Part shown: positions 31,395 through 57,066 of the stretch, piece after piece
How positions within the stretch are numbered: position 1 is the first letter of the stretch
Layout: the number at the start of each line of letters is the position of its first letter
Origin: Chloroflexota bacterium
GTDB lineage: Bacteria; Chloroflexota; Limnocylindria; Limnocylindrales; CSP1-4
DNA length: 60,721 bases
NCBI GenBank assembly: GCA_031431395.1
Contig: JANPDJ010000001.1
Location: forward strand, 1-60,721
Reading direction: 5' to 3'
Notes under the pieces: model-generated
The model's input: the letters and a program-made list of their open reading frames with translations, nothing else
Databases searched by the model: none
Told to the model about the DNA's origin: nothing
Made by a program: the position numbers and the translations under genes

Positions 31395-31483
31395 CGCCCC
31401 GGCGGCTGCCTCGCGCTCGAATCCGACCGTGATGAGCGGCGGCGGCGCACGTGCGAATTCGCGCGGGGCGTGAGAATGGCGCG

Positions 31484-33967: not shown

Positions 33968-34324
33968 GTGACCGGGATCTGGTACATCCTTGGGTTTGCC
34001 TTCGCCGGCCTGTCGTTCGTGTTCCTCACGATCGGCGCGGCATGGCTGATCTCCCATCGGAATCGCGGCGATGTCCACAAGGGCCTGCCGTACGAGAGCG
34101 GGATCGACACGTACGGCGATCCCCACGGGCGGTTCGGCCTGTCCTTCTACATCTATGCGTTGCTGTTCGTCGCGTTCGACATCGAGGTGATCTTCATCTA
34201 CCTCTGGGCGATCGTGTTCCGCGACCTCCTGATGAGCGGCTTCGTGAGCATGCTGATCTTCGTCGCCATCCTCCTGCTCGGCCTCGCCTACGCCTGGCGA
34301 AAGGGCGTCCTCACATGGCGCTGA
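33968..34324 (+). CDS. nuoA: NADH-quinone oxidoreductase subunit A
   Basis: 118 aa, 3 TM helices. [28 protein letters not shown]. Confidence 0.92.
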
Positions 34325-35088
34325 GCGGTCCGGGGGAAGGTGCCACGGGTGATTCGGGCGGGACTCCAGAGAGCGGCGGCGGCATGACGGCCCGTGAGTC
34401 GAGCCGATCCTCCAGCCTGCCGGCCGTCATCGAGACGGGCGACTCGGCCGTCATGGAACCCATCGTGGTCCCGAACACCCTCTGGCAGTCCACCAATCCG
34501 GCCGCGTACAGCGGCGGCACGCCCACCGACATCACGCACCTCCGCGAGCTTGGGCTCACGGAGGCCATGCGCCACAACGATGCCCGCTGGGGCGCCCTCG
34601 AGGTGATCCCCACCAAGGCGGACTACGTCCTGGACCTTCTCCGCGCAAACAGCCTGTGGCCGCTCTTGTCGGGCCTGGCCTGCTGCGCCATCGAGATGAT
34701 GTCGGCGGCCACCAGCAAGAACGACATGGACCGCTGGGGCATGTTCCCGTTCCGCGCCAGCCCGCGCCAGGCGGACGTGCTGATCGTCGCCGGGACGCTC
34801 ACCACCAAGATGGCCGGGCCGCTTGTGCGGCTCTGGGAGCAGATGCCAGAGCCAAAGTGGTGCGTGGCCATGGGCGATTGCACGATCTCCGGCGGCCGGT
34901 ACAAGCGGTCCTACTCCACGGTGGAAGGCATCGACCGCGTGATGCCCGTGGACGTCTATGTCCCCGGCTGCCCGCCCCGCCCGGAGGGCCTCATCTACGG
35001 GATGATGCGGCTCCAGCAGTTGATCAAAGACCGCCGGGGTCACTGGCCCGAGCGGGCGGTCGGCCCAACCGTTCCGGATCGTGTCTAG
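34315..35088 (+). CDS. nuoB: NADH-quinone oxidoreductase subunit B (N2 cluster) with a long N-terminal extension
   Basis: [43 protein letters not shown]. Start uncertain; ATG at 34315 overlaps the nuoA end. Confidence 0.88.
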
Positions 35089-35097
35089 GCCAGCCTG

Positions 35098-35649
35098 ATG
35101 GATCGTGCGCTCAAGCTGCGCCTGGAAGCGCGCTTCACGGATCGGCTGACCGGGCCGGTGCGCCAGCGCCATGACGCGACGGAGATCCGTATCGGGGCCG
35201 GCGACGTGCCGGACACGCTGCGCACCCTCCACGACGACCCGTCGTTCCGGTTCGAGTTCCTGTCGGACCTGGCCGGCGTCGACACGGGGCTCGTCATGCA
35301 GGTCGTGTACCACCTGTGGAGCGAGACCACCTCGGACTGGCTGAGGGTCATCGCGGACGGGCTGTCGCGCGAGGATCCGCGCGTCCCTTCCATCACGTTC
35401 CTCTGGCAGGGCGCGGAGTGGATGGAACGCGAGGCCTACGACATGTTCGGCATCACGTTCGAGGGGAACCGGGACCTGCGGCGGATCTACATGCCCCCGG
35501 ACTACACGAGTTTCCCTCTCCGCAAGGACTTCTTCCTGGCCGACGATGCCGCCCGCTCGCCGGGCGCCGGCGTGCGCCACCAGGAGCAGACCCACACGCC
35601 CCGCAACGCGCCCCCGGGACGCGCCATCCGCGTGGCTAAGGAGGCCTGA
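35098..35649 (+). CDS. nuoC: NADH-quinone oxidoreductase subunit C
   Basis: FEFLSDLAGVD, PSITFLWQGAEWMEREAYDMFGITFEGN.DLRRI. Confidence 0.9.
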   Translation: MDRALKLRLEARFTDRLTGPVRQRHDATEIRIGAGDVPDTLRTLHDDPSFRFEFLSDLAGVDTGLVMQVVYHLWSETTSDWLRVIADGLSREDPRVPSITFLWQGAEWMEREAYDMFGITFEGNRDLRRIYMPPDYTSFPLRKDFFLADDAARSPGAGVRHQEQTHTPRNAPPGRAIRVAKEA

Positions 35650-36882
35650 GTGACCGCTCAACCAGGCTCCGGGACCCGCCGCGCATCCAGCGACGATCCG
35701 CGCGTGATGCTCGACATCGACGCCGGGGCGTACGAGCCGGTGCCGCCGTACCCGCCCCGCACGGAGCGTGAAGCCGAGTTCTACACGCTCGCCGACGGCG
35801 AGATGTTCGTGAACATGGGCCCGCAGCACCCCTCCACGCACGGCGTTCTGCGGGTCGTGCTGAAGCTCCGCGGCGAGCAGGTCGTGGACCTGGACCCCGT
35901 CCTCGGCTACCTCCATCGCGGCGTGGAGAAACTGGCGGAGAACGCGGACTACCACCACACCATCGCCTACATGGACCCGCTCGAGTACATCTCCTCGCTG
36001 TTCTGCGAGTGGCCGGCAGTGATGGCCTTCGAGAAGCTGCTCGACGTGGAGGTGCCCCGTCGCGCGGAGTACATCCGTGTCCTGTCCACGGAGCTGAACC
36101 GGGTCGCCAGCCATGCCCTGTTCATGGGCTGGTTCGCGCTTGACCTGGGCGGCCTGACGCCGGTCCTCTGGAGCTTCATCGAACGCGACGAGATCGTGGA
36201 GATGCTGGGCGCGCTGACCGGGGCGCGGATGCTCTTCAACTACATGCGGATCGGCGGCGTCAACGGAGATCTGAACCACGAGTTCATGAGCCGCCTGGGA
36301 GCGTGGATGAGCCGCGCCGGCACGCATATCGACTCGAACACGAAGCTGCTCAACGAGAACGAGATCTTCGTCCGCCGCTCGCGAGGTCTCGGTGTCGTGG
36401 ACCGCGAGACGGCGGTCCGGATGTGCATGACGGGACCCAACCTGCGCGCAACGGGCGTGCCATTCGACGTCCGCCGCGCACACCCCTACAGCGTGTTTCC
36501 GGAGCTGGACTTCGACATCCCCACACGGACGGAGGGCGATTCGCTCGCACGCTACCTCCTCCGCGTGGACGAGATCAAGCAGAGCCTGCGAATCATCGAC
36601 CAGTGCCTCCACCAGATGCCTGACGGCCCGATCATGGCGAAACTGCCGCGCAGGCTGACACCCCGACCCGGCCGTGCCTACGCTGCCGTGGAGAGCCCCC
36701 GGGGGCAGTACGCCGTGTACGCGATGAGCGACGGCACGGACCAGCCGTTCCGGCTGCGCATCCACGATCCCTCGTTCGTCCATCTCCAGAGCGTCGGCCT
36801 CCTGATGCCGGGCAATCTCGTCGCGGACACGATGGCGATCATGGCCTCGCTGGACCCGGTCATGGGGGGCGTGGACAAGTGA
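35650..36882 (+). CDS. nuoD: NADH-quinone oxidoreductase subunit D
   Basis: NMGPQHPSTHGVLRVVL, GYLHRGVEKL, YMRIGGV, ESPRGQYAVY, DPVMGGVDK. Confidence 0.95.
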   Translation: MTAQPGSGTRRASSDDPRVMLDIDAGAYEPVPPYPPRTEREAEFYTLADGEMFVNMGPQHPSTHGVLRVVLKLRGEQVVDLDPVLGYLHRGVEKLAENADYHHTIAYMDPLEYISSLFCEWPAVMAFEKLLDVEVPRRAEYIRVLSTELNRVASHALFMGWFALDLGGLTPVLWSFIERDEIVEMLGALTGARMLFNYMRIGGVNGDLNHEFMSRLGAWMSRAGTHIDSNTKLLNENEIFVRRSRGLGVVDRETAVRMCMTGPNLRATGVPFDVRRAHPYSVFPELDFDIPTRTEGDSLARYLLRVDEIKQSLRIIDQCLHQMPDGPIMAKLPRRLTPRPGRAYAAVESPRGQYAVYAMSDGTDQPFRLRIHDPSFVHLQSVGLLMPGNLVADTMAIMASLDPVMGGVDK

Positions 36883-36913: not shown

Positions 36914-38254
36914 ATGACGTCCGTTTCGCGCGCCTGGGGCCGGCTGACCCTGCCGGGCAAGATCATCTTCACCCTGGTGCCGCTCCTGCTGGCGATGACG
37001 GTCGGCCTGCTCGTCGCGGTGGTGCTCGTCGGGCCCTACGTCCTGCAGTTCCTGGGCGACAACCTGCCCCTCGTGCGCTTCGTCGTCGCGGCCACGGCCG
37101 TGCTCCTGATGTCGATCCCCACGGCCTTCATCATCATCTACATGGAGATGAAGGTCATCGCGCTGATGAACCTTCGCATCGGACCGGACCGCGTTGGACC
37201 CTACGGGTCGCTCCTGTCGGTGGTCCACGGGCTCAAGGTCCTCATGAAGGAGGACTTCACCCCAACCGGGGCGGATGCGCCCGTGTTCACCCTCGCGCCC
37301 GCCGTGGTCTACCTGGGCGCGGTGATGTCGCTGCTCGTGATTCCGTTCGCCCCGGGGCTCTTCGGGCAGGACTTCAACATCGGCCTGCTGTATTTCTTCG
37401 CGGTGAGCGGCCTCAGTGTCGTCGGCCTGATGATGGCCGGCTGGTCCAGCTACAACAAGTACTCGCTGCTGGGCGGCCTGCGGTCCGCGGCCCAGGTGAT
37501 CAGCTACGAGATCCCGCTCACCCTTTCGGTGGTGGGCCTGCTCCTGCTGGCCGGCACGATGAGCCTCAACACGATCGTCCTCAACCAGTCCGGCACTGCG
37601 CTCGACTGGTACATCTTCCGCCAGCCGCTGGGGTTCCTGATCTTCTTCATCGCCGCGACCGCGGAGGCCAACCGCACGCCGTTCGACCTCACGGAGGCCG
37701 ACTCGGAGATCGTCGCGGGCTTCGCCACGGAGTACTCGGGGATGCGCTTCGGGTTCCTCTTCTTCGCCGAGTACGTCGGGGTGTTCGTCGTTTCTGCGAT
37801 GACGGTGACCCTGTTCTTCGGCGGCTGGAACGCCCCCTTCAACTGGCCGTGGCCGGTCACCGCCAGTCTCGACCCGGGCAGCCTGGGCATCCTGCTACTC
37901 ATCCTGGTCGCCATCGTCCCGGTCCTTGGGACCCTGCTGTTCGCCGCGCCGTTCTGGCTGCTCCGCTCGTCGATGCCGGGCTGGCAGGCGCTGATCATCG
38001 GCTTCCTGATCTTCAATTTCGTGGCCGTGGGAGCTGTCCTCGGGTGGGCATTCATCAGCTTTGACTGGGTCGTGGGTCTGCTCTGGTTTATGCTGAAGAC
38101 CTACGGTTTCGTGTTCACCTTCGTCTGGATGCGGGGGACGTTGCCGCGCGTCCGGATCGACCAGCTGATGGGATTCGCCTGGAAATGGCTGCTGCCCGCC
38201 TCCCTGCTGAACCTGTTCGTGACGGCCGGTGCGCTCATCGTGCTGAACCGCTGA
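36914..38254 (+). CDS. nuoH: NADH-quinone oxidoreductase subunit H (long form)
   Basis: MEMKVIALMNLRIGPDRVGPYG..LKVLMKEDF, AEANRTPFDLTEADSEIVAGFATEYSGMRF. Confidence 0.92.
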   Translation: MTSVSRAWGRLTLPGKIIFTLVPLLLAMTVGLLVAVVLVGPYVLQFLGDNLPLVRFVVAATAVLLMSIPTAFIIIYMEMKVIALMNLRIGPDRVGPYGSLLSVVHGLKVLMKEDFTPTGADAPVFTLAPAVVYLGAVMSLLVIPFAPGLFGQDFNIGLLYFFAVSGLSVVGLMMAGWSSYNKYSLLGGLRSAAQVISYEIPLTLSVVGLLLLAGTMSLNTIVLNQSGTALDWYIFRQPLGFLIFFIAATAEANRTPFDLTEADSEIVAGFATEYSGMRFGFLFFAEYVGVFVVSAMTVTLFFGGWNAPFNWPWPVTASLDPGSLGILLLILVAIVPVLGTLLFAAPFWLLRSSMPGWQALIIGFLIFNFVAVGAVLGWAFISFDWVVGLLWFMLKTYGFVFTFVWMRGTLPRVRIDQLMGFAWKWLLPASLLNLFVTAGALIVLNR

Positions 38255-38312: not shown

Positions 38313-39140
38313 ATGAGCTTCATCCCCGGGATCGGGATCGCAAAGGGCATGGCCCTGACGCTGCTCCGATTCTTCCAGCCCAAGGTGACCATCCGCTACC
38401 CGGAAGTCGCCGCGGATGTCTCCCCGAAGTTCCGGGGCCGCCTGCAGCTCCTCTACGACGAGTGGGGCACGCTCAAGTGCGAGACCTGCTTCCAGTGCGC
38501 GCAGGCCTGCCCCATCGAGTGCATCGACATGGGCGGGACGGACACCAAGGGCCGGTATCACGTCCACTGGGGCGCGGCGGAAACGTACGGCGAGCGGCGC
38601 GATGAATCCGCGCTGCGGCGTTCGGGCAGGCCGGTCCCGGACGAGGCCTACAGCCACGATCAGCCCATGAATCTCGAGGCCGTGGACGCGATCCTCGCGG
38701 CGTATGACCACGATCCAGGGTCGATGCTCCAGATCCTGGGCGACGTGCAGGACACCTACGGCTACCTGCCCGTGGCGGCGCTGAAGCGGATCAGCACGTC
38801 CACCGGTGCCTGGTACGCGATGATCTACGGTACTGCGTCGTACTACCGCCATCTGCGATTCGATCCGCCGGGCCAGTCCGTCGGCATCTGCCGCTGCACG
38901 AGCTGCCTGATCAGCGGGGGTGGTCGGATCCAGGAGGCGCTGGAACGCGGGCTCCGGGCCAGCCTCGGCAAGACTCCGTTGAGCGGCGGGATCCGGCTGG
39001 AACAGCTGCCCAACCATGTCGCGGGCGCGTCATCGCCTCTCGTGATGGTCGCCGGCGAGCCCGTCGCACTGACGCCGGAAACGGCGGAGCCCTGGGCTCG
39101 TGGCCTGGCGCCACAGTCCGGCACCCGGGCACAGGCCTGA
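38313..39140 (+). CDS. Fusion protein: NuoI N-terminal half (one 4Fe-4S motif) + NuoE-like thioredoxin-fold domain
   Basis: Residues 1-88: PKVTIRYPE, KFRGRL, and C56-x2-C59-x2-C62-x3-C66-P (38478-38513). A second ferredoxin motif is absent in all frames. Residues ~118-250: YDHDPGSMLQILGDVQDTYGYLP..IYGTASYYRHLRFDPPGQSVGICRCTSCLISGG (NuoE-like). Confidence 0.8.
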   Translation: MSFIPGIGIAKGMALTLLRFFQPKVTIRYPEVAADVSPKFRGRLQLLYDEWGTLKCETCFQCAQACPIECIDMGGTDTKGRYHVHWGAAETYGERRDESALRRSGRPVPDEAYSHDQPMNLEAVDAILAAYDHDPGSMLQILGDVQDTYGYLPVAALKRISTSTGAWYAMIYGTASYYRHLRFDPPGQSVGICRCTSCLISGGGRIQEALERGLRASLGKTPLSGGIRLEQLPNHVAGASSPLVMVAGEPVALTPETAEPWARGLAPQSGTRAQA

Positions 39141-39144
39141 GGTC

Positions 39145-40476
39145 ATGACAACGCTGCTCGCCACACCGGCCGGCTGGCCGCAGATCCTGCTGGCACGAGC
39201 CAGGAAAGCCGCGCCCGTCGGCAGCCCCGGCTCGGCGACGGCGACCGGCCCGTTCGCAGGACTCCGGATCGCGATCGAGCGGCTCGGCCCGGAAGGCACG
39301 ATCAGAGCGATCGAGCAGTCGGGCCTGCGCGGCCGAGGTGGGGCAGGCTTTCCCACCGGCACGAAATGGCGCAAGGCCGCCGCCACCGAGGCATCGCGCC
39401 GGTACGTCGTCGCCAACGGATACGGCGCCGATCCGGCCGTCTCCATCGACCAGGTCCTCATGGAGCGGGACCCGTTCGGGCTGCTTGAGGGCGTCGCCAT
39501 CGCCGCGTACGCAATCGGCGCGTCCGAGGCCGTCATCGCGGTGCGCGCGGAATACGCGGAGGCCGCCCGCGGACTGGAGGCCGCCATCCTGGCGGCAGAG
39601 GCAGCCGGGTTCCTGGGCGCGGACATCCTGAGCTCGGGCGTCGATCTGACCGTCACGGTCCGGACCGTGCAGGGCGCCTACATGCTGGGCGAGGAGACGG
39701 TCCTCCTGAAGGCCCTCGAAGGCAAGCGCGGGCAGCCGGAACAGCGGCCGCCGCACCCGGCGGAGCGGGGGATGTTCGGGCAGCCCACGGTCGTCCAGAA
39801 CATCGCCACCCTGATCGCCGTCCCGTGGATCCTCGTGAACGGCGCGGAGGCGTGGCGGGCCATCGGCACGCCGGACGCACCCGGAACCGTGCTCGTCCAG
39901 GTCAGCGGCGCGGCCGCGAACGGGATCGCGGAGGTGCCCACGGGCACCACCTTGGCGCAGATCATCGACCTTGCGGGCGGCGTGGTGCCGGGCCGTCGGG
40001 TGAAGGCAGTCCTCGTCGGCGGGCCATCCGGCGGGCTCCTGCCGGCGACGGCACTGGACACCCCGTATGACTTCGGGCCGTTGCGCGCCGCGGGCGCCCA
40101 CGTGGGCTCTGGCTCCATCGTGGTCGCCGACGAGCGGACGTGCGTGGTGGACCTGGCTCGCCTCCTGACGGCGTTCTGCGCCGACGAGGCATGCGGCAAG
40201 ACCATCCCGTGCCGGATCGGGACACGCCGGATCGCCGAGATCGGGGACCGCGTGACGAGCGGTCGGCCGCGCCCCACGGACCTGCAGCTCCTGGCGGACC
40301 TCAGCCATGATGTGGTCGCGTCCGCGCTATGCGATCACGAGCGCCTGGCGACCCTTCCGTACGCCAGCGCGATGCGATACTTCCGCTCCGAGCTCGACGA
40401 CCACGTTCTCCGCAGCTCCTGCCCGGCCGGTGTCTGCCGCCCCATCGCGGTGGCCGGCGTTGCGGCGGGCTACTGA
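39145..40476 (+). CDS. nuoF: NuoF-like subunit with divergent FMN/NADH and N3-cluster signatures
   Basis: GLRGRGGAGFPTGTKW, QGAYMLGEETVLLKALEGKRGQPEQRPPHP, PTVVQNIAT. However, it has ANGYGADPAVS in place of CNADESEPGT, and C350-GK-T353-IP-C356...C396 in place of CxxCxxC...C. Confidence 0.85.
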   Translation: MTTLLATPAGWPQILLARARKAAPVGSPGSATATGPFAGLRIAIERLGPEGTIRAIEQSGLRGRGGAGFPTGTKWRKAAATEASRRYVVANGYGADPAVSIDQVLMERDPFGLLEGVAIAAYAIGASEAVIAVRAEYAEAARGLEAAILAAEAAGFLGADILSSGVDLTVTVRTVQGAYMLGEETVLLKALEGKRGQPEQRPPHPAERGMFGQPTVVQNIATLIAVPWILVNGAEAWRAIGTPDAPGTVLVQVSGAAANGIAEVPTGTTLAQIIDLAGGVVPGRRVKAVLVGGPSGGLLPATALDTPYDFGPLRAAGAHVGSGSIVVADERTCVVDLARLLTAFCADEACGKTIPCRIGTRRIAEIGDRVTSGRPRPTDLQLLADLSHDVVASALCDHERLATLPYASAMRYFRSELDDHVLRSSCPAGVCRPIAVAGVAAGY

Positions 40477-40485
40477 GGCCTTCCG

Positions 40486-43080
40486 ATGACCGATCTCGCC
40501 ATCCGACCCAGAGCCACGCTCGATCCCCTCGCGCATGCCGAGACGCTGCTGGACACCCAGGCGCCGCAGCGGCCGACGGCCACGCCCCGGATCCGGATCG
40601 AGGTGGACGGGCGCGTCGTGGAAGGCCTGGAGGGCCAGACCATCCTCGAGGTCTGTCGCGACAACGGCATCGAGATCCCCACGCTCTGCTACGAGCCCAA
40701 GCTGCCGGGCTTCGGGGCATGCCGGATGTGCGTCGTCGAGGTGGAGGGCGAGGAGCATCCGCCCATCTCCTGCTCGCGCGCCTGCGAAGACGGCATGAAG
40801 GTCCAGACGCAGACGGAAGAGGTGCGGCGCCTCCGCCGGACCAACCTCGAGCTGATCTTCAGCGACCACAACGCGTACTGCCTGCCGCCGTGCCAGAACA
40901 AGTGCCCCAGCCACATCGACATCCCGGGCTTCCTGAAGCAGAACGCGGAGGCGAACTGGCGCGAGTCCGTGCGGATCTTCAAGCGGACCATCCCGTTCCC
41001 TTCGGTCCTGGGGCGGGTCTGTCCAGCCCCGTGCGAGGAGCACTGCCGTCGCGACGAGGTGGACGAGGCGATCGCGATCCGCGACTCGCACCGATATGCC
41101 GGCGACCAGGTGATCAGGGCGATGCTCAACGAGAACGTGGACCCGCCGGTCCCGTTCGAGGTCCAGCCCCGGAGCGGACGCCGGATCGCCGTGATCGGAT
41201 CCGGGCCGGCGGGCGCCACCGCTGCGTACTACCTCCTGATCGCCGGCCACGACGTGACCATCTTCGAACGGGACCCCATGCCGGGCGGGATGCTCCGCTA
41301 CGGCATCCCGCAGTACCGGCTTCCCAAGGTGGAGGTCCTCGAGGCGGAGTACGAGGGCATCGTGCGGCTCGGCGGCCGGTTCGTGACGAACCAGGGCCTC
41401 GGGCGCGATTTCACGCTGGACGACCTGCAGAACCAGGGGTTCGACGCGGTCTGCGTCGCCATCGGCTGCTACGACACGAACAAGCTGGGGATCCCCGGCG
41501 AAGACGGCACCGGCGTCATCGACGGCCTGGACTACCTGCGCACGGCCACCCTGGGCCTCGAATACCCGGGCCACGCCGGGAGCCGCGTCGTGGTCATCGG
41601 CGGCGGCTTCACCTCGATGGACTGCACCCGCACGTCCGTCCGGCTGGGCGCGGCGGAGGTCACGCTGGTCTACCGGCGCGACATGAAGGACATGCCCGCC
41701 TCCGACGAGGTGCACGAGGCCATCGAGGAAGGCGCCACGGCGATCTTCCAGGCGGGCCCGGTCCGGATCGTGACCGACGCCACCAACACGGTCACGGGCG
41801 TGGAGTTCATCCGGATGAAGCTTGGCGAGCCGGATGCGTCCGGTCGCCGCCGCCCGGAGCCTGCCCCCGGTACCGAGTTCACGATCCCGTGCGACCGCGT
41901 CCTCCTGGCCATCGGCCAGGGCCCGGACCTGACATGGATCGGCCCCGGCTCCGATGGACCGAAGGCCAGCAAGCAGCGCCGCCTCGTTGCCGACGCGGTC
42001 ACCTTCGAGACCGGACGGCCGGGTGTCTTCGGCACAGGTGACGTGCGCATCGGCGCGGCGACCGTCGTGCAGGCCATCGCGGAGGGCCGCCGGGCCGCCT
42101 ATGCCGTGGATGCGTACGTCAAGGGCCTGGACCTGGCCGCCATCCGGACCCGCCAGACGCTGGCCGAGCCCCAGCCCGAGTTCCTGTCCATCGTGCCGTT
42201 CACCAGCGAGATCAAGGAGCCCCGCATCCGCCTGAAGAAGATGGAGGCGGAGGCCAGGAATCGCAGTTACATCGAGTACGAGATCCCCTACACGCGGGCC
42301 GAGGCGGTCGCGGAGTCCACGCGCTGCCTCCAGTGCACCTGCGAGGCGATCGGCTTCTGCGACCTGCGGCGGCTGGGGATCGAGTACGGCACAACCCTTG
42401 CGACGCTCGAGCCGCACCACAACTCCGGTGCAGGCTACCGCTCCGTGACCGAGAACCGGTTCACCGGCTACAACCACGACTACATCCGCGATGACTCACA
42501 CGCGTTCATCCTGCGCGAGCCGTCCCGCTGCATCGACTGCGGCCGTTGCGCGCAGGTCTGCTCGGAAGTGGTGGGCGCGGCCTGCTACGACTTCATGCGG
42601 ATCGGCTTCGACACCCTGGTGACGACGCCGCTGGATATGAGCCTCAACGACACGCCGTGCGTCTCGTGCGGCCGCTGCGCCGAGACCTGCCCCACGGGCG
42701 CGCTCATGCCCAAACCGCGGGTGCTGCAGAAGTACGAGGTCGACGAAAGCCGCTGCATCCTGTGCGGCATCTGCGTGGACGCCTGCCCGTATGACGCGCT
42801 CCGCGACAGCACGGAATTCGAGCTGTCCCACGAGTCGCGGGCAGAACCCATGATCGACCTGCTGTCCTACTCCGCCGTCAACCAGGAGACGGAAGTCACG
42901 TACATCCGGCGCGAGCGCGACTGGGCGGAGCGCGCCATGGCGGACGGCCGGCTGCTGGACACCGGACGCCTGCTGCCGATGCTGCCGGCGTCCATCGCGA
43001 ACGGCAACGGGAATGGACATGGCAACGGCCACGCGCACGACCACGGAGGCGCGGGCGCCACCGCGGGGCGGCACAAGTAA
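40486..43080 (+). CDS. Chimeric Fe-S flavoprotein: NuoG-type 2Fe-2S N-terminus + GltD-like FAD/NAD(P)H domain + 2x[4Fe-4S] region + NuoI C-terminal half
   Basis: - 2Fe-2S: TLCYEPKLPGFGACRMCVVEV...SC.
- GltD part: SDHNAYCLPPCQNKCPSHIDIPGFL, GRVCPAPCEEHC, IAVIGSGPAGATAAYYL, GGMLRYGIPQYRLPK, VVVIGGGFTSMDC, VFGTGDV.
- 2x[4Fe-4S]: RCIDCGRCAQVC and CVSCGRCAETCPTGAL.
- NuoI-like end: KYEVDESRCILCGICVDACPYDAL..FEL...DLL.
- No molybdopterin-like NuoG body. Confidence 0.85.
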   Translation: MTDLAIRPRATLDPLAHAETLLDTQAPQRPTATPRIRIEVDGRVVEGLEGQTILEVCRDNGIEIPTLCYEPKLPGFGACRMCVVEVEGEEHPPISCSRACEDGMKVQTQTEEVRRLRRTNLELIFSDHNAYCLPPCQNKCPSHIDIPGFLKQNAEANWRESVRIFKRTIPFPSVLGRVCPAPCEEHCRRDEVDEAIAIRDSHRYAGDQVIRAMLNENVDPPVPFEVQPRSGRRIAVIGSGPAGATAAYYLLIAGHDVTIFERDPMPGGMLRYGIPQYRLPKVEVLEAEYEGIVRLGGRFVTNQGLGRDFTLDDLQNQGFDAVCVAIGCYDTNKLGIPGEDGTGVIDGLDYLRTATLGLEYPGHAGSRVVVIGGGFTSMDCTRTSVRLGAAEVTLVYRRDMKDMPASDEVHEAIEEGATAIFQAGPVRIVTDATNTVTGVEFIRMKLGEPDASGRRRPEPAPGTEFTIPCDRVLLAIGQGPDLTWIGPGSDGPKASKQRRLVADAVTFETGRPGVFGTGDVRIGAATVVQAIAEGRRAAYAVDAYVKGLDLAAIRTRQTLAEPQPEFLSIVPFTSEIKEPRIRLKKMEAEARNRSYIEYEIPYTRAEAVAESTRCLQCTCEAIGFCDLRRLGIEYGTTLATLEPHHNSGAGYRSVTENRFTGYNHDYIRDDSHAFILREPSRCIDCGRCAQVCSEVVGAACYDFMRIGFDTLVTTPLDMSLNDTPCVSCGRCAETCPTGALMPKPRVLQKYEVDESRCILCGICVDACPYDALRDSTEFELSHESRAEPMIDLLSYSAVNQETEVTYIRRERDWAERAMADGRLLDTGRLLPMLPASIANGNGNGHGNGHAHDHGGAGATAGRHK

Positions 43081-43154: not shown

Positions 43155-43691
43155 TTGGCGATCCCGTCAACCGTGCCGTTCATCGGGCTGAGCTGGGACG
43201 ACGTGCTGTTCCTGCTCTTTGCGACCACGATGATCGGGACGGCTCTGCTTGTCGTGTCGATGCGCGACATCATTCGCTGCGGCCTGGCGATGATGGCGTC
43301 ATTCGGCGCACTCGCCGGCATCTACGTCCTGCTGGGCGCCCCGCTCGTGGCTGCAGCCCAGGTACTGATCTACATCGGCGCCATCGCGGTTCTCATCCTG
43401 TTCGCCATCATGCTCACCCAGTCGAAGGCCGCGCCCGCCCGCCTCGTGTTCCAGACGCAGGCAGTTCCGGCCGGCATCGCCGCCGTGATCCTCGCCGTGG
43501 TCATCGCATTGACGGTCACGGCCACGGACTGGGGCGCGGTCACGAGCCGCCTCGGCACCGCGACGGACGAACTTGCGAGGCTGCTCTTCCGTGACTACGT
43601 GCTGCCGTTCGAGATCGTCAGCGTCCTGCTGCTGGCCGCGGTCATCGGCGGGGTATTCCTCGCGAAGCGCGAGGAAGGCGGGCCGCAATGA
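43155..43691 (+). CDS. nuoJ: NADH-quinone oxidoreductase subunit J
   Basis: TTG start after a purine-rich SD. AAAQVLIYIGAIAVLILFAIML, FEIVSVLLLAAVIG. Confidence 0.88.
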   Translation: MAIPSTVPFIGLSWDDVLFLLFATTMIGTALLVVSMRDIIRCGLAMMASFGALAGIYVLLGAPLVAAAQVLIYIGAIAVLILFAIMLTQSKAAPARLVFQTQAVPAGIAAVILAVVIALTVTATDWGAVTSRLGTATDELARLLFRDYVLPFEIVSVLLLAAVIGGVFLAKREEGGPQ

Positions 43692-43999
43692 GCAACTCGC
43701 TCGACGCCTACCTCGTGCTGTCCGGGATCATCTTTGCCATCGGCACATTCGGCTTCCTGGCGCGCCGGAACGCCATCAGCATGCTCATGTCCATCGAACT
43801 CATGCTGAATGCCGTCAACCTCGCGATCGTCGCGTTCGGGTCGTTCGTGGAGGCGCTCAGGACGGCGTCCTCCGTCATCGCACTGATCGTGATGGCCGTC
43901 GCGGCGGCGGAAGCCACCGTGGGCCTCGCGATCGTGATCGCCATCTACCGCAACCGCCGCACGCCGCTGGTCGATGAGTACGACACGCTGCGCCAGTAA
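43688..43999 (+). CDS. nuoK: NADH-quinone oxidoreductase subunit K
   Basis: 103 aa. MLMSIELMLNAVNLA, AAAEATVGLAIVIAIYR. ATGA overlap with nuoJ. Confidence 0.92.
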   Translation: MSNSLDAYLVLSGIIFAIGTFGFLARRNAISMLMSIELMLNAVNLAIVAFGSFVEALRTASSVIALIVMAVAAAEATVGLAIVIAIYRNRRTPLVDEYDTLRQ

Positions 44000-44014
44000 C
44001 CCGATCGAGGCCTG

Positions 44015-45964
44015 ATGGAGACCCTGATCCCGCTCATTCCGGCCCTGCCCCTGGCCGGGTTCGTCTTCACCGGGCTGTTCGGCCGGCGGCTGGGCAAGCG
44101 CGCCTCACTCGTGCCCGTGCTTGCGGTCGTGGCCTCCTGGATGATCGCCATGGTGGTCGTCTACAACGCGCTCACCGGCTCGGGCGCCTTCGCGGGCGGC
44201 CAGGGCGTGGAGGTCCACCTCTGGAACTGGATCCCGGCGGGCGCGTTCCAGGTCCAGTTCGGCTTCTACGCGGACAACCTCACGGCCTGCCTCCTGATCG
44301 TGGTCACCACGATCGGCATGCTCGTGCACGTCTACTCGCTCGGATACATGAGCCACGACCCCGGGTACTGGCGCTTCTTCGCCTACCTGAACCTGTTCAT
44401 GTTCTCGATGCTGCTCCTGGTCCTCGCGGACAACTTCCTGCTCGTATTCGCGGGCTGGGAGCTGGTGGGCCTGTCCAGCTACCTGCTCATCGGGTTCTGG
44501 TACCGCAGGCGGTCGGCCGCCCTTGCCGCCAAGAAGGCCTTCATCGTGAACCGCGTCGGAGACGTGGGGTTCGCCCTGGGGATCATGGCGATCTTCGTGT
44601 CGCTGGGCACGCTCAACATCCGCGAAGTCATCGAGCGGATCGGCACCCTCGACCACACTCAGATCACGGTGATCGCCCTGCTGCTCTTCGCGGGCGCCAT
44701 GGGCAAGAGCGCCCAGTTCCCGCTCCACGTGTGGCTCCCGGACGCGATGGAGGGCCCCACGCCCGTGTCCGCCCTGATCCACGCGGCGACGATGGTCAAC
44801 GCGGGCGTCTACCTGGTGGCCCGGGCGAACCCGATCTTCGCCCACGCGCCGGAGGCGATGGTGGTGGTCGCGGCCGTCGGCATCTTCACCGCAATCCTGG
44901 CCGCGTCCATCGCGTTCACCCAGACCGACATCAAGCGTGTGCTCGCGTACTCCACGCTGAGCCAGCTGGGCTACATGTTCGCCGCGCTCGGCGTGGGAGC
45001 ATGGACGGCGGCCATCTTCCATCTCATGTCGCACGGCTTCTTCAAGGGCCTGCTGTTCCTTGATTCGGGCTCGGTGATCCACGCCGTGGACGGGGAACAG
45101 GACATGCGCCGGATGGGTGGACTGCGCCGCCGGATCCCCATCACGTACGCGACGATGTTCATCGGGTCCGTGGCCATCTCCGGCATCCCACCCCTCGCCG
45201 GTTTCTTCAGCAAGGACGAGATCCTGGGCGAGGCCTTCAAGAACGGCTTCCTGTGGGTCTGGGCCATCGGCCTCCTCGTGGCTGGCATGACGGCGTTCTA
45301 CATGTTCCGGCTCATGGGCCTCACGTTCTGGGGCAAGAGCCGCGTGGACCCGGCCGTCGAGCCGCACATTCATGAGTCACCGCGATCCATGACCCTGCCG
45401 CTGCTCGTCCTGGCCGTCCCGAGCGTCCTCCTCGGCCTGGCGATCGGCTGGCCCCTCGGGAGCGGCCAGCTCCGCACCTGGCTCGAGCCCGTGTTCCACG
45501 AAGCGGTGGAGCTCGCGGCGCGCCCGGAAGCCGCGTATGCCTTCTTCGGGGTTGACGGCGCCCTCCTGATCACGAGCGTCGCCGTGGCCACCCTGGGAAT
45601 CATCGGCGCGTGGGCGCTCTTCGGACTCGAGCTCCCGGGCATCCGGCGCGCCGGCAACCCGGATCGCGTCCGCAGCCTCGCGGGCCGGATGCCGTTCCTG
45701 TACCGCGCGTCGCTCAACAAATGGTGGTTCGACGAGCTCTACGACCTCCTGTTCATCCGCATCGGCGGCCGGATCGCGGCCTTCCTCTGGTGGTTCGACC
45801 GGGCGGTGGTGGACGGAACGGTGAACGGCGTGGGGGCGCTCACCGCGGACGCCGGGCGCGGCCTGCGGCGCTTCCAGACCGGCCACGTGCAGAACTACGC
45901 CCTCGGCATCGCGATCGGCCTGATCGTCATGGCGGGCGGCTATCTCGTGATTGCGGGGCGGTAG
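44015..45964 (+). CDS. nuoL: NADH-quinone oxidoreductase subunit L
   Basis: FAGWELVGLSSYLLIGFW, GKSAQFPLHVWLPDAMEGPTPVSALIHAATMV, and a C-terminal lateral-helix region. Confidence 0.95.
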   Translation: METLIPLIPALPLAGFVFTGLFGRRLGKRASLVPVLAVVASWMIAMVVVYNALTGSGAFAGGQGVEVHLWNWIPAGAFQVQFGFYADNLTACLLIVVTTIGMLVHVYSLGYMSHDPGYWRFFAYLNLFMFSMLLLVLADNFLLVFAGWELVGLSSYLLIGFWYRRRSAALAAKKAFIVNRVGDVGFALGIMAIFVSLGTLNIREVIERIGTLDHTQITVIALLLFAGAMGKSAQFPLHVWLPDAMEGPTPVSALIHAATMVNAGVYLVARANPIFAHAPEAMVVVAAVGIFTAILAASIAFTQTDIKRVLAYSTLSQLGYMFAALGVGAWTAAIFHLMSHGFFKGLLFLDSGSVIHAVDGEQDMRRMGGLRRRIPITYATMFIGSVAISGIPPLAGFFSKDEILGEAFKNGFLWVWAIGLLVAGMTAFYMFRLMGLTFWGKSRVDPAVEPHIHESPRSMTLPLLVLAVPSVLLGLAIGWPLGSGQLRTWLEPVFHEAVELAARPEAAYAFFGVDGALLITSVAVATLGIIGAWALFGLELPGIRRAGNPDRVRSLAGRMPFLYRASLNKWWFDELYDLLFIRIGGRIAAFLWWFDRAVVDGTVNGVGALTADAGRGLRRFQTGHVQNYALGIAIGLIVMAGGYLVIAGR

Positions 45965-45967
45965 GCA

Positions 45968-47506
45968 ATGGACATCACCGGCCTGCCGATCCTGACGCTG
46001 ATCACCTTCGCGCCGCTGGTGGGGGCGATCCTCATCGCGTTCATCCCGCGAAGCAGCGCCGGCCTGGTCCGGGCAACGGCACTGGGGACGAGCCTTGTGT
46101 CGTGGGCGCTGTCGCTGTTCCTGCTCGTTGGTTTCCTGCCCTCGCACCCGAACTTCCAGTTCGTGGAGCGGGCGGACTGGATCTCCGCATTCGGGATCCA
46201 GTACAAGCTTGGCGTTGACGGCCTCTCGCTCGTCATGGTGGTTCTGACCACCACGCTCACGTGGATCTCGATCCTCGCCAGCTTCGGGCCGATCAAGGAA
46301 CGGGTGAAGGAGTACATGATCTCCTTCCTCATCCTCGAGGTCGGCATGCTCGGCGTGTTCGTTGCCCTCGACCTGTTCCTCTTCTACATCTTCTTCGAGA
46401 TCGTTCTCGTGCCGATGTACCTGATCATCGGCATCTGGGGCGGGGCAAACCGCATCTACGCGACGATCAAGTTCGTCCTGTACACGCTGGTGGGCTCTCT
46501 GCTGATGCTGGTGGGCATCCTGGCCACCGCATTCGCCTTCCAGGCGGCGCACGGGGGCAACTGGGCGGGAGCCTTCGACTACGAGACGCTGCGCCAGTTC
46601 AGCTTCGACAGCACCCTGCAGTTGTTCGCATTCCTCGCCTTCTTCCTGGCGTTTGCGATCAAGATCCCGATGTTCCCGTTCCACACGTGGCTGCCCGACG
46701 CCCACGTGGAGGCTCCCACCGCCGGCTCCGTGATCCTGGCGGGGGTTCTCCTCAAGCTGGGTGGATACGGGTTCATCCGTTTCGCGGTTCCGCTCTTCCC
46801 CGAGGCCGCCCATACCTACGCGCCGGCGATCATCCTGCTGAGCGTCATCGCGATCATCTACGGGGCCATCGTGGCTCTCGTCCAACCAGACCTGAAGAAG
46901 CTGGTGGCCTATTCATCGGTCAGCCACATGGGCTTCGTGACGCTGGGCATCTTCGTGTTCCAGGAGCAGGGACTCCAGGGCGCGATCCTGCAGATGGTCA
47001 ACCACGGGCTGATCACGGGCGCGCTGTTCCTCCTCGTCGGGGTGCTCTACGAGCGGACCCACGACCGGACGATTGCGAAGATGGGCGGGCTTTCGGCGCA
47101 GATGCCCGTCTATGCCGTCGCCTTCGGGTTCTTCATGCTGGCCTCGGCCGGGTTGCCCGGGCTCTCCGGCTTCATCGGCGAGTTCCTCGTCTTCGTGGGC
47201 TCCTTCGCGTATTCCCCGGCCGTCGCGGCAGCGTCAACGATCGTGATGGTCTTTGCCGCCGGGTACCTGCTCTGGATGTTCCAGCGGATGTTCTTCGGCG
47301 AACTGTCTGACTTCTTCAAGAACGCCATCGGCCACCTCGACGACCTGCGGCCGACGGAAGTGCTGACGCTGGTCCCGCTCGGCGTGCTGGTTGTCGTCTT
47401 CGGCCTGTTCCCGGGCCTCCTTCTCACGCTTGTCCAGGGCACGGTCACGGAGGTGCTCCACGGCGCCGCACAGGCGAGCGCCATCAACCTGGCGTTCTGG
47501 CAGTAG
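45968..47506 (+). CDS. nuoM: NADH-quinone oxidoreductase subunit M
   Basis: FYIFFEIVLVPMYLIIGIWGG, KIPMFPFHTWLPDAHVEAPTAGSVILAGVLLK. Confidence 0.95.
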   Translation: MDITGLPILTLITFAPLVGAILIAFIPRSSAGLVRATALGTSLVSWALSLFLLVGFLPSHPNFQFVERADWISAFGIQYKLGVDGLSLVMVVLTTTLTWISILASFGPIKERVKEYMISFLILEVGMLGVFVALDLFLFYIFFEIVLVPMYLIIGIWGGANRIYATIKFVLYTLVGSLLMLVGILATAFAFQAAHGGNWAGAFDYETLRQFSFDSTLQLFAFLAFFLAFAIKIPMFPFHTWLPDAHVEAPTAGSVILAGVLLKLGGYGFIRFAVPLFPEAAHTYAPAIILLSVIAIIYGAIVALVQPDLKKLVAYSSVSHMGFVTLGIFVFQEQGLQGAILQMVNHGLITGALFLLVGVLYERTHDRTIAKMGGLSAQMPVYAVAFGFFMLASAGLPGLSGFIGEFLVFVGSFAYSPAVAAASTIVMVFAAGYLLWMFQRMFFGELSDFFKNAIGHLDDLRPTEVLTLVPLGVLVVVFGLFPGLLLTLVQGTVTEVLHGAAQASAINLAFWQ

Positions 47507-47514
47507 GGGCGGGC

Positions 47515-56970: not shown

Positions 56971-57066
56971 CGCGTGACCTCCGCGGCAACCAGGTGAGAG
57001 CGCGCACGACGCAAGGTACACGGACGACGGGCTCAAGATGGGCCGCGCACGCGGCCGGAGAAGCAG

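Follow-up and report, generated by a model that had tools for sequence, protein, structure and literature searches.

The window, that is the whole stretch of 60,721 nucleotides analysed here, carries on its forward strand a nuo operon in which nuoA, B, C, D and H lie upstream, and nuoJ, K, L, M and N downstream, of three open reading frames, ORF1, ORF2 and ORF3 (Table 1). The original prediction had placed three such frames between nuoH and nuoJ; they were found at the coordinates it gave, and HMM scans matched every domain it had assigned to them. The DNA comes from a Chloroflexota bacterium of soil or freshwater, hundreds of whose relatives share the split nuoI described below. The other genes neighbouring the nuo locus in the window are housekeeping genes. 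The nuo unit may begin with the NDUFAF7-like gene, whose product is likely a factor for complex I assembly. Judged from its residues, the complex I core is functional, with N2 ligands in NuoB and the quinone-site His and Tyr in NuoD. An intact nuoI and a molybdopterin-type NuoG body were both missing from the window and from all 90 related loci examined, in agreement with their predicted absence from the operon.

Table 1. Coordinates of the nuo locus and of the domains encoded by ORF1 to ORF3.
Feature	Position	Strand	Remarks
NDUFAF7-like methyltransferase (PF02636)	32638-33834	+	Methyltransf_28, 196.5 bits; directly upstream of nuoA
nuoA	33968-34324	+	Oxidored_q4, 108.8 bits
nuoB	34384-35088	+	Start codon approximate; N2 ligands CCxxE...C...CPP present in translation
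nuoC	35098-35649	+	Complex1_30kDa
nuoD	35650-36882	+	Quinone-site His (HPSTHG) and Tyr (DPLEYI) kept
nuoH	36914-38254	+	446 aa, unusually long: N-terminal extension and internal insertion
ORF1	38313-39140	+	275 aa
ORF1 residues 1-84, NuoI N-terminal half	38313-38564	+	Amphipathic helix, PKVTIRYPE and KFRGR motifs, one CxxCxxCxxxCP
ORF1 residues 85-115, linker	38565-38657	+	HWGxxExYxERRxxSALRRxGRxVPD; strongly conserved, 12/31 positions invariant
ORF1 residues 116-265, NuoE/NfnC-like thioredoxin-fold domain	38658-39107	+	PF01257; AF2 pLDDT 70-95
ORF2, NuoF/NfnB-core-like flavoprotein	39145-40476	+	443 aa from ATG, alternative start GTG at 39142; FMN loop, GEET motif, N3/B1-type cluster motif
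ORF3	40486-43080	+	864 aa
ORF3 residues 35-110, NuoG/HydA-type N-terminal [2Fe-2S] domain	40588-40815	+	Fer2_4; equivalent to cluster A1/N1b
ORF3 residues 128-547, GltD/NfnL-like domain	40867-42126	+	Two [4Fe-4S] sites, FAD GxGxxG, NADPH Rossmann fold
ORF3 residues 614-625, [4Fe-4S] motif	42325-42360	+	CLQCxCx5C, invariant
ORF3 residues 675-740, ferredoxin-like 2x[4Fe-4S], Fer4_Nqo3 type	42508-42705	+	C682/685/688/692 and C725/728/731/735
ORF3 residues 745-800, NuoI C-terminal half	42718-42885	+	KYEVDESRCILCGICVDACPYDAL..FELSHESRAEPMIDL; occupies the place of the NfnA/StnC Fdh-like domain
ORF3 tail	42886-43080	+	Partly conserved helix, then variable His/Gly/Asn-rich end
nuoJ	43155-43691	+	
nuoK	43688-43999	+	
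nuoL	44015-45964	+	
nuoM	45968-47506	+	
nuoN	47515-48978	+	nuoJ-N block spans 43155-48978

The central feature of the locus is that nuoI is split, with one half at each end of the cassette formed by the three frames; this proposal of the original prediction was borne out by HMM scans and by alignment to solved NuoI structures. Residues 9-84 of ORF1 match only the N-terminal half of NuoI models (positions 13-89 of 180 in NF004536 and 1-66 of 121 in TIGR01971), while residues 745-788 of ORF3 match the complementary positions 71-114 of 121 in TIGR01971, and the top four family matches of this C-half alone are all NuoI. With E-values of 1e-10 to 1e-15 for each half and conservation over hundreds of genomes, these matches are far beyond chance. 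Rejoined in silico, the halves give a single-stretch match to TIGR01971 positions 1-114 of 121, and residues 9-125 align to solved NDUFS8/NuoI (TYKY) chains; the eight Cys all line up, and a single 5-residue gap falls at the splice. The alignment to solved NuoI extends beyond the Cys motifs to the N-terminal helix with PKVTIRYPE/KFRGR and to the FELSxxxR tail. Against the curated NuoI cut-off of 113 bits, the halves score 49.9 and 52 and the rejoined sequence 96.5, all below it. The motif Cys of the N-half (C56, C59, C62 and C66) are each invariant in 75/75 homologues. In AF2 models the N-half alone has a pLDDT of 27-51, compared with 70-95 for the fused E-domain, which would be weakly consistent with a half-domain needing a partner; the linker lies below 50, and the ORF3 model, with a mean of 42, was too poor for use.

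Between the two halves, the remaining domains resemble the input modules of flavin-based oxidoreductases. Residues 125-251 of ORF1 match PF01257, the NuoE-type thioredoxin-like [2Fe-2S] domain; ORF1 retains the first Cys pair of this domain (C193 and C198, plus C195) but not the second, and its H235 is invariant. In Foldseek comparison the TM of this domain is 0.83-0.86 to NfnC/StnA, against 0.52-0.69 to respiratory NuoE, the best match being NfnC (TM 0.83). ORF2 matches Complex1_51K, SLBB and NADH_4Fe-4S; the N-terminal [2Fe-2S] and C-terminal 2x[4Fe-4S] of bifurcating BfuB (B2, B3, B4) were absent from it in the domain scan. Its N3/B1 cluster motif reads CGKTIPC, with Thr for the second Cys, and the nucleotide/flavin motif NGDEGDPG has become NGY(E/G)ADPA; the GRGGAGF loop and the GEETVLL motif are still conserved, and C351, C357, C397 and H399 are invariant. 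ORF2 scores 359, 355 and 350 bits to StnB, HydB and NfnB, compared with 244-292 to respiratory NuoF. In ORF3, matches were obtained to Fer4_20 (132-209), Pyr_redox_2 (233-534) and Fer4_Nqo3/Fer4 (675-773). The NADPH Rossmann fold contains an invariant VYRRDMKDMPA; specificity of the GltD-like domain for NADPH is assigned by homology. At the proximal cluster of this domain, an invariant His202 takes the place of Lys170 of Csac NfnA (PMC11829005). Nowhere in the cassette is conservation higher than in the ferredoxin-like domain, with 60/70 positions invariant. ORF3 scores 541 bits to Caldicellulosiruptor (Csac) NfnA (query 36-767 vs chain 4-699) and 486 to Sporomusa StnC, and the homology stops at the start of their Fdh-like domain.

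Relatives of ORF1 were found in at least 579 genome stretches, almost all from Limnocylindria. Gene order was compared in 80 fetched genomes or loci, counting those long enough, and in every such locus the order nuoA-(B)-C-D-H-ORF1-ORF2-ORF3-J-K-L-M-N recurred with the same fusions; the original prediction had suggested such a search of related genomes. For ORF1 and for ORF3 alike, no fewer than 120 protein clusters, drawn from NCBI, JGI, ENA and Logan assemblies, show these lengths and junctions. All cluster Cys are invariant across 58-75 homologues; conservation is 0.87 in the FAD domain, 0.97 in the ferredoxin domain and 0.85-0.88 in the NuoI halves, and lower in the E-like domain (0.70) and the F-like subunit (0.71). 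GC3 is 0.87-0.92 in the three frames, matching a true coding frame. The arrangement is a class-wide trait of Limnocylindria and not a one-off. An assembly or frameshift artefact that falsely split nuoI and fused its neighbours, an objection that the original prediction had itself raised, draws only on the a priori chance attached to a metagenome-derived contig; it has next to no likelihood beside the recurrence of these junctions in independent genomes and the fit of GC3, and was rejected on the distribution of the frames. The split also reaches beyond this layout. A sister family (L087, L089; one member labelled Thermoleophilia) has the same split nuoI with a complete bifurcating cassette inside, including a full BfuB (N-terminal [2Fe-2S] and C-terminal 2x[4Fe-4S]) and a four-Cys NuoE-type cluster. 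L083 has the layout of the window, and L082 a different domain layout with the same two NuoI halves. The position of the cassette, exactly that of nuoI in 11-subunit operons, is strictly conserved in three divergent families. An orphan paralogue of ORF1 lies away from nuo genes in L043 and L049, and L085 is a soluble, POR-linked relative with similar lone motifs.

Taken together, the three proteins of the cassette are homologous by sequence to the soluble NfnABC/StnABC (Bfu-family) transhydrogenases. For each of the three frames, the best match in sequence and in fold is to those of Sporomusa ovata, Caldicellulosiruptor saccharolyticus and Thermococcus sibiricus (PDB 8oh5, 9bov, 9n5u). They have the same three subunits, whose genes follow one another as in the window, the NuoE-like first, the NuoF-like next and the A subunit last. 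The A subunit also has the same plan: it starts with a [2Fe-2S] domain, carries a GltD/NfnL-like FAD-NADPH insertion that holds two clusters, and has 2x[4Fe-4S] of the ferredoxin type. However, NfnABC/StnABC are soluble, tetrameric or monomeric, and bifurcating; the additional [2Fe-2S] and 2x[4Fe-4S] domains of their B subunit have no counterpart here, their C subunit lacks the N-terminal NuoI half, and where the NuoI C-half stands here, their A subunit finishes with an inactive Fdh-like domain, on a dead-end branch (A2-A4-A5, C1/C2) of the published electron paths (PMC11829005, PMC10482914). Cluster A7 has Lys in these enzymes and His here, and the ligands of C1 and B1 differ in the present cassette. 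The original description of the cassette as an Nfn-like module thus stands as regards its closest relatives by bits and TM, whereas Nfn-like behaviour is not expected, because the parts that define bifurcating Bfu enzymes are lost.

Among complex I systems, the canonical 14-subunit enzyme (NuoA-N; Thermus, E. coli, mitochondria) has the same membrane arm and Q-module, related NuoE/F/G(N) folds and the same logic of flavin, Fe-S chain, N6a/N6b, N2 and quinone. It differs in having nuoEFG between nuoD and nuoH, nuoI as one polypeptide, a NuoG with a molybdopterin-like body, no FAD/NADPH domain and specificity for NADH, while the input genes here lie inside nuoI and are nearer to Bfu-type enzymes than to respiratory NuoEF. 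The 11-subunit "ancestral" complex I, NDH-1 and Fpo (NUO11) share the core order A-B-C-D-H-I-J-K-L-M-N and an input not from NuoEFG, but they keep an intact NuoI/NdhI/FpoI on which a separate donor docks (ferredoxin in cyanobacterial NDH-1; FpoF with F420H2), and none has an input module spliced into nuoI. In the predicted Nuo-Bfu of Geobacter, Deferribacteres, Planctomycetes and Nitrospirae, a Bfu-type ABC likewise lies mid-operon as the proposed feeder of complex I; it is described as a 14-subunit NuoA-N with BfuABC in place of NuoEFG, keeps a bifurcating BfuB, and is reported with no mention of NuoI or of a GltD/NADPH domain (Schut et al. 2022, PMC9304861). In Thermotoga and proteobacteria, Mbx-like operons resemble the locus in placing a GltD-like NAD(P)(H) flavoprotein on a complex-I-related membrane module at the position of NuoI, for which it is said to substitute, but they are Mrp/Mbx-type and non-quinone, without the NuoE/F/G(N) trio or a split NuoI (Degli Esposti 2015, PMC4758237). 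Full-text search of the searchable literature found no description of the split-nuoI cassette, consistent with the earlier remark that no example was known.

The explanation that fits best, with a probability of roughly 0.62, is a complex I with an 11-subunit core (NuoA, B, C, D, H, I, J, K, L, M, N) in which nuoI is split by an NfnABC/StnABC-derived cassette, the whole acting as a non-bifurcating NAD(P)H:quinone enzyme. It draws directly on gene anatomy, homologies, ligand conservation and distribution, and it predicts further how the halves would assemble in trans, which cofactors would be bound, which nucleotides would be used and which way electrons would flow. The three-gene cassette interrupts nuoI between its two [4Fe-4S] motifs, so that the N-half is fused ahead of the NuoE/NfnC-like subunit and the C-half after the NfnA-like subunit, in place of the inactive formate-dehydrogenase-like domain. 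In dicluster ferredoxin folds each cluster is held by three Cys of one motif and a fourth of the other, and a single CxxCxxCxxxCP is unable to complete a cluster; the halves would therefore have to meet to bind N6a and N6b. From this 3+1 ligation, the invariance of the eight Cys and the obligate co-occurrence of the halves, we infer that the lone motifs reassemble in trans, which would rebuild the wire to N2 and quinone and clamp the cassette onto NuoB/D/H, the Q-module. Electrons of NADPH would pass from the FAD of the GltD-like domain to the two clusters of that domain, on to the CLQC cluster and the pair in the ferredoxin-like domain, and from there to N6a/N6b, N2 and quinone, and this flow would drive proton pumping; the branch that is a dead end in soluble Nfn/Stn would here be the outlet. 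NADH is probably a second input, through the FMN of the NuoF-like subunit and the N-terminal [2Fe-2S] to the same junction, but this is uncertain, since the FMN-side sites are altered (CGKTIPC, the missing second Cys pair of the NuoE type, NGY(E/G)ADPA). Since the B subunit has no ferredoxin-reducing domains here and the clusters beside the FMN have altered ligands, non-bifurcating oxidation of NAD(P)H by quinone is expected. A point against the explanation is that canonical NuoI is fed by N5, a His-ligated cluster of NuoG, and that such a geometry is not known to apply here. Another is that, in the absence of bifurcation, an open connection between FAD and FMN would make the enzyme an uncoupled transhydrogenase unless it were gated.

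The altered FMN side bears on whether NADPH could be the only fuel, with the GltD-like FAD as the sole working inlet, the NuoE-like and NuoF-like parts as scaffold or electron sink and the FMN site inactive or non-physiological. The lower conservation of these parts compared with the FAD-to-NuoI path (0.87-0.97), the Thr in B1/N3, the loss of the second Cys pair of C1/N1a and the replaced NGDEGDPG motif would agree with this; it is nevertheless unlikely, as the FMN loop and GEETVLL are retained, the ORF2 Cys and His residues listed above are invariant, and an ORF2 identity of 53-72% over the class, similar to that of NuoJ, indicates purifying selection. Bifurcation or confurcation as in soluble NfnABC, coupling NADPH, NADH and ferredoxin with quinone as an extra partner, would suit the homology of the whole cassette and the complete BfuB and four-Cys cluster of the sister family. 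It is highly improbable in the lineage of the window, where ORF2 retains three domains only and the C1 and B1 ligands are altered: non-bifurcating homologues lack exactly the B2/B3/B4 sites, and deletion of B3/B4 abolishes bifurcation (PMC11829005).

Operation in reverse, in which proton motive force drives quinol electrons through N2 and N6 to FAD to make NADPH and/or NADH, as an energy-linked NADP+ reductase and not a respiratory inlet, is quite improbable. Complex I is reversible, but nothing in the sequence sets the direction, NAD(P)H is normally in surplus in heterotrophs and no lithotrophic context was seen in the window. The FAD site of Nfn/Stn works both ways (PMC10482914), and the lineage is reported to be aerobic and to carry heliorhodopsins (bioRxiv 2021.02.01.429150), both of which would be compatible with such a role. 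There is likewise very little chance that the three proteins are not complex I subunits at all, forming instead a soluble oxidoreductase encoded inside the nuo operon whose lone motifs are unpaired ferredoxin remnants, while the core uses another NuoI or donor. The sub-threshold NuoI scores, the orphan paralogue and the POR-linked relative could be taken that way, but the helix and tail that align to solved NuoI, the strict position of the cassette, the lack of an intact nuoI in the loci examined and the inability of a lone motif to complete a cluster all speak against it. If the split-NuoI explanation is true, Limnocylindria would have an undescribed way to plug a new fuel inlet into a proton pump.

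The nuo genes of the window (G+C about 70%) are contiguous and form one operon in which NuoA, B, C, D, H, J, K, L, M and N are all encoded, as assigned by Pfam or, for NuoB, by translation. The ligands of the NuoB cluster N2 are kept in the translated sequence (CCxxE, C, CPP), as are the quinone-site His (HPSTHG) and Tyr (DPLEYI) of NuoD. The canonical layout of the N-module is not observed: nuoH follows directly after nuoD, with no nuoE, F or G between them. The original prediction had placed three ORFs of 275, 443 and 864 aa between nuoH and nuoJ. These were recovered at those lengths, each of the domains proposed for them was found in the Pfam and NCBIfam scans, and the GC3 of the ORFs, 0.87-0.92, confirms their reading frames. 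No molybdopterin domain was detected in ORF3 by the Pfam scan, and the window contains neither a molybdopterin-type NuoG nor a second nuoE or nuoF. An intact nuoI was found neither in the window nor in 90 related loci, in keeping with the original prediction that the operon holds no intact nuoI and no NuoG body of the molybdopterin type. Scans for promoters and terminators, Rfam families and tRNAs added nothing.

Several neighboring features were also observed. Directly upstream of nuoA is a gene of the PF02636 (Methyltransf_28) family, to which the complex I assembly factor NDUFAF7 also belongs. In mitochondria, NDUFAF7 methylates the homologue of NuoD. The gene suggests that the Q-module of the window may have a dedicated maturation step. 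NuoH of the window has 446 aa, as opposed to 321-375 aa in related split-nuoI operons, with an N-terminal extension of ~55 residues and ~80 added residues within the Pfam match; the surplus probably represents extra transmembrane helices. Two further ORFs of 395 and 521 aa are well framed (GC3 0.82-0.84) and have no Pfam match at E < 1e-5.

Positions of the nuo operon, the inserted cassette and neighboring genes in the window
Feature	Position	Strand	Found by or length
ORF without Pfam match	31451-32638	+	395 aa
PF02636 gene	32638-33834	+	
nuoA	33968-34324	+	Pfam
nuoB	about 34384-35088	+	translation
nuoC	35098-35649	+	Pfam
nuoD	35650-36882	+	Pfam
nuoH	36914-38254	+	Pfam
ORF1	38313-39140	+	275 aa
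ORF2	39145-40476	+	443 aa
ORF3	40486-43080	+	864 aa
nuoJ, K, L, M, N	43155-48978	+	Pfam
ORF without Pfam match	56125-57690	-	521 aa

The two CxxCxxCxxxCP motifs of NuoI, instead of sharing one polypeptide, are located on the two proteins that flank the cassette. Residues 9-84 of ORF1 match the N-terminal half of NuoI models only (TIGR01971 positions 1-66 of 121, 49.9 bits), while residues 745-788 of ORF3 match positions 71-114 (52.0 bits), both scores lying below the curated cut-off of 113.05 bits. When ORF1 residues 1-81 were joined in silico to ORF3 from residue 749 on, a single unbroken match to positions 1-114 of the 121 was obtained, at 96.5 bits, also below the cut-off. Residues 9-125 of the rejoined sequence align with solved TYKY/NDUFS8/NuoI chains (7ar7_I, 82.8 bits; 9f5x_G; others) with only one gap, of 5 residues, exactly at the splice, and all eight Cys are in register. 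The NuoI-specific flanks are likewise present, comprising the N-terminal helix with PKxTxxYPE/RFRG and the C-terminal FE(L/F)xxxxR, which align with the solved chains as GMALTLLRFFQPKVTIRYPE...SPKFRG and FELSHESRAE, respectively. For the C-half alone, the four best family matches are all NuoI, and the match runs past the Fer4 motif. The earlier proposal that the two lone Cys motifs derive from NuoI is thus borne out by the rejoined alignment.

ORF3 contains three CxxCxxCxxxC(P) motifs, and because the first two correspond in the alignment to the ferredoxin-like pair of NfnA, the third is left with no internal partner. In folds of the dicluster ferredoxin type, the ligands of each cluster are three Cys of one motif plus a single Cys of the other, so a lone motif needs a second. 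Assignment of the third motif to an N7/A5-type cluster of a truncated Fdh domain was considered and rejected, since the motif is CxxCxxCxxxCP with NuoI flanks and not CxxCxxxC. In the AF2 model of ORF1 only the E-like domain was resolved (pLDDT 70-95); the isolated NuoI N-half has a pLDDT of 27-51, which is weakly consistent with a fold that would depend on a partner. The AF2 model of ORF3, with a mean pLDDT of 42 from a 28-sequence alignment whose members are all at least 82% identical, was unusable. Within ORF1 residues 70-115 (window 38520-38657), an extra Cys, C70 (in CPIEC), is invariant. After the lone NuoI motif there also lies an invariant 30-residue segment, HWGxxExYxERRxxSALRRxGRxVPD, whose conservation equals that of the cluster motif and for which canonical NuoI and NuoE have no equivalent.

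As a unit, the cassette is closest to the solved soluble NfnABC/StnABC transhydrogenases of the Bfu family, which provide the best PDB sequence and Foldseek matches and substantiate the suspected kinship with Nfn. ORF3 matches NfnA of Caldicellulosiruptor saccharolyticus (9bov_A) with 541 bits, query 36-767 against chain 4-699, followed by Sporomusa StnC (8oh5_C, 486 bits) and Thermococcus NfnA (479 bits). ORF2 matches StnB, HydB and NfnB with 359, 355 and 350 bits, compared with 292 bits for mycobacterial NuoF and 244 bits for Thermus Nqo1. The best sequence matches of the ORF1 E-domain are NfnC and StnA, to which Foldseek gives a TM of 0.83-0.86, against 0.52-0.69 to respiratory NuoE. As in NfnABC/StnABC, a NuoE-like C subunit, a NuoF-like B subunit and an A subunit with [2Fe-2S], GltD-like FAD/NADPH and ferredoxin-like clusters are encoded together. 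The difference lies at the end of the A subunit: in NfnA and StnC the residues past ~700 form an inactive formate-dehydrogenase-like domain, whereas in ORF3 the homology stops at about residue 767, no Fdh/NuoG-like ending is found, and the NuoI C-half is present instead. The cluster branch in this Fdh-like domain has been called a dead-end “evolutionary remnant” (A2-A4-A5 in PMC11829005; C1/C2 in PMC10482914).

Residues 125-251 of ORF1 form a PF01257 NuoE-type domain, ORF2 consists of Complex1_51K, SLBB and NADH_4Fe-4S with no other Pfam or NCBIfam domain, and ORF3 comprises Fer2_4 (35-110), Fer4_20 (132-209), Pyr_redox_2 (233-534) and Fer4_Nqo3/Fer4 (675-773). The [2Fe-2S] Cys, both GltD-domain clusters and the FAD GxGxxG motif are kept in ORF3. 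After the second Rossmann strand follows an invariant VYRRDMKDMPA, as in NADPH-binding NfnA, which points to a putative NADPH specificity. An invariant His202 (codon 41089-41091) replaces the A7 Lys ligand (K170 in C. saccharolyticus NfnA). This Lys beside the FAD (A7 in NfnA, C7 in StnC) is also His in three of the distant relatives (L083, L085 and L087), including the soluble POR-linked locus L085. ORF2 retains the GRGGAGF loop and the GEET motif, and NGDEGDPG has become NGY(E/G)ADPA. The second Cys of N3/B1 is Thr in 60 of 62 homologues, and an invariant His is located two residues past the fourth. In the E-domain of ORF1 the second C1 Cys pair is absent and His235 is invariant. The window thus has neither the four-Cys C1 [2Fe-2S] nor the four-Cys B1 [4Fe-4S] site that flank FMN. 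The C-terminus of ORF3, residues 838-864 (42997-43077, + strand), is a His/Gly/Asn-rich low-complexity tail (NGNGNGHGNGHAHDHGG...) whose length varies among homologues.

For ORF1, the assemblies of NCBI, JGI, ENA and Logan gave at least 120 clusters of full-length homologues, at 60-92% identity, and for ORF3 at least 120 clusters at 81% identity or more. When one genome per GTDB species was scanned, at least 579 stretches with an ORF1 relative were obtained, and the 80 loci fetched from these are nearly all Chloroflexota MAGs labelled Limnocylindria or Limnocylindrales. Each sufficiently long locus of the 80 has the order nuoA-(B)-C-D-H-ORF1-ORF2-ORF3-J-K-L-M-N, which answers the proposed search of related genomes for the same gene order and fusions. 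The predicted cluster ligands are all invariant across 58-75 homologues. Conservation reaches 0.97 in the ferredoxin-like domain, 0.90 at the CLQC cluster, 0.87 in the FAD domain and 0.85-0.88 in the NuoI halves, and falls to 0.70 in the NuoE-like domain and 0.71 in the NuoF-like subunit. In the source annotations, the proteins bear general names (“NADH:ubiquinone oxidoreductase subunit E”, “FAD-dependent oxidoreductase”, “formate dehydrogenase major subunit”); pathway calls built on such NuoE, NuoF, FAD-dependent oxidoreductase and formate dehydrogenase names would presumably overlook both NuoI and NuoG. An orphan paralogue of the NuoI(N)-NuoE fusion was observed away from nuo genes in two loci, L043 (10001-10867, 288 aa, motifs intact) and L049 (5784-6581), from MAGs that also carry the full operon (L036 and L008); in L043 its neighbors are genes for a 2-oxoglutarate dehydrogenase and a DUF255 protein. 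Either a second isoform of the docking subunit or an effect of binning could account for this extra copy.

When ORF1 was the query of an exhaustive search, distant NuoI(N)-NuoE fusions at ~30% identity were also recovered. The P0326 family (L087, L089/L090), a sister family with at least 120 clusters and one member labelled Thermoleophilia, has the layout nuoA-B-C-D-H, I(N)-E fusion, BfuB, ORF3-like protein, nuoJ-N (L087, 6255-20762; L089, 602-15092). Here, the fusion has 253 aa and a normal four-Cys NuoE cluster, and the ORF3-like protein has 824 aa and the C-terminal end RYDLDESRCIFCGDCVEACPYDALEQTSYFELASYSRTDLV. BfuB is of the full bifurcating type (636-643 aa) with the B2-B5 sites present, carrying an N-terminal [2Fe-2S] thioredoxin-like domain, a canonical CGKCxPC and a C-terminal 2x[4Fe-4S] ferredoxin domain. 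Judging from its sequence, this family may have bifurcation hardware connected to a proton pump. The layout of L083 equals that of the window. In L082 (359-11571) the cassette domains are distributed otherwise, with nuoH followed by the I(N)-E fusion, a protein of 1048 aa that joins NuoF and GltD, one of 265 aa that joins NuoG(N) and NuoI(C), and nuoJ-N; nuoI is split in the same way. The subunits of the distant split-nuoI operons are all 36-55% identical to those of the window, which would fit a single ancient origin of the split operon, in which case the cassette of Limnocylindria would be a pruned form. Furthermore, a soluble POR-linked NfnABC-like locus (L085, 97-7726; L086) has an E-like subunit with an N-terminal lone CxxCxxCxxxCP and an A subunit with a third motif (SFRVDESRCIMCRECVGVCPVDAL) followed by a PorB/TPP domain. 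This hints that the split dicluster “plug” could be a general docking device for Bfu-type modules.

Taken together, we assign a probability of roughly 0.45 to a previously unrecognised class of complex I, present in at least two bacterial lineages, the class Limnocylindria of Chloroflexota and the family with the Thermoleophilia-labelled member, in which an NfnABC-type module is spliced into nuoI and docked via the split dicluster. In the most likely mechanism, the NuoI halves would reassemble into the N6a/N6b domain, rebuilding the wire to N2 and tying both ends of the cassette to the Q-module. Electrons from NADPH would pass to FAD, the two GltD-domain clusters, the CLQC cluster and the ferredoxin-like pair, and would then leave by the branch that is blind in soluble Nfn/Stn, through N6a/N6b and N2 to quinone. 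NADH oxidized at FMN would probably reach the same junction through the N-terminal [2Fe-2S] cluster. Which cofactors the altered sites hold and which way the electrons run are inferred, as is the specificity for NADPH. The conservation gradient suggests that the NADPH path would be the main one. An NADPH-only enzyme, with the E and F parts as scaffold, differs from this reading solely in whether the FMN site works, and is unlikely, if the most credible of the alternatives: the GRGGAGF and GEET motifs are retained beside altered C1 and B1 ligands.

As the ferredoxin branch is missing, the enzyme is expected to be a non-bifurcating NAD(P)H:quinone oxidoreductase. Bifurcation retained in the window lineage is highly improbable and was rejected, because the B2-B4 domains are absent from ORF2, which lacks all extra BfuB sites B2-B5 and aligns solely to residues 125-527 of the 584-residue StnB chain. 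Non-bifurcating relatives also lack the B2-B5 cluster sites, and deletion of B3/B4 in a related hydrogenase abolished bifurcation (PMC11829005). In the L087 family, its retention is plausible. Operation in reverse, making NADPH along the same chain, is given little weight. A soluble enzyme unrelated to the complex I core is very unlikely. A frameshift or misassembly as the source of the split nuoI, which the original prediction had named as fatal to it, was dismissed because of the wide distribution, and the probability of an artefact is negligible.

Soluble Nfn-Bfu has been described, and a 14-subunit Nuo-Bfu predicted for Geobacter and others, in a study that never mentions NuoI and gives no GltD domain for Nuo-Bfu (Schut et al. 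2022, PMC9304861). That Nuo-Bfu is a NuoA-N complex with BfuABC for NuoEFG, whereas the window has 13 genes, a split nuoI, a GltD domain and an ORF2 that is not of the bifurcating BfuB type. In Mbx-like operons, a GltD-like protein stands in place of NuoI (Degli Esposti 2015, PMC4758237), and a survey of complex I variants reports only C/D and B/C/D fusions (bioRxiv 2025.03.13.643058). In the literature open to full-text search, neither a split nuoI nor the placement of an Nfn cassette within a nuo operon was found to have been described.

If the proposed class is real, the form found in Limnocylindria would be the first natural complex I that oxidises NADPH and pumps protons. Complex I is regarded as NADH-specific, and NADPH use is not known other than through engineering of NuoF; the electron donor of many 11-subunit complexes is still debated. 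The locus would offer a natural and widespread candidate, defined at the sequence level, for proton pumping driven by NADPH in a lineage that is abundant in soil and freshwater. For the evolution of complex I, it would provide a concrete route for attaching an already formed soluble redox module to the 11-subunit core, namely insertion of its operon into the connecting ferredoxin subunit, whose split domain then serves as both wire and clamp. The branch regarded as a dead end in NfnA/StnC would here become a productive outlet. Moreover, the un-pruned sister form would wire a bifurcating or confurcating flavin module (NADPH, NADH, ferredoxin) to quinone reduction and proton pumping, so that in this family the coupling of bifurcation hardware to a proton pump could be put to the test.
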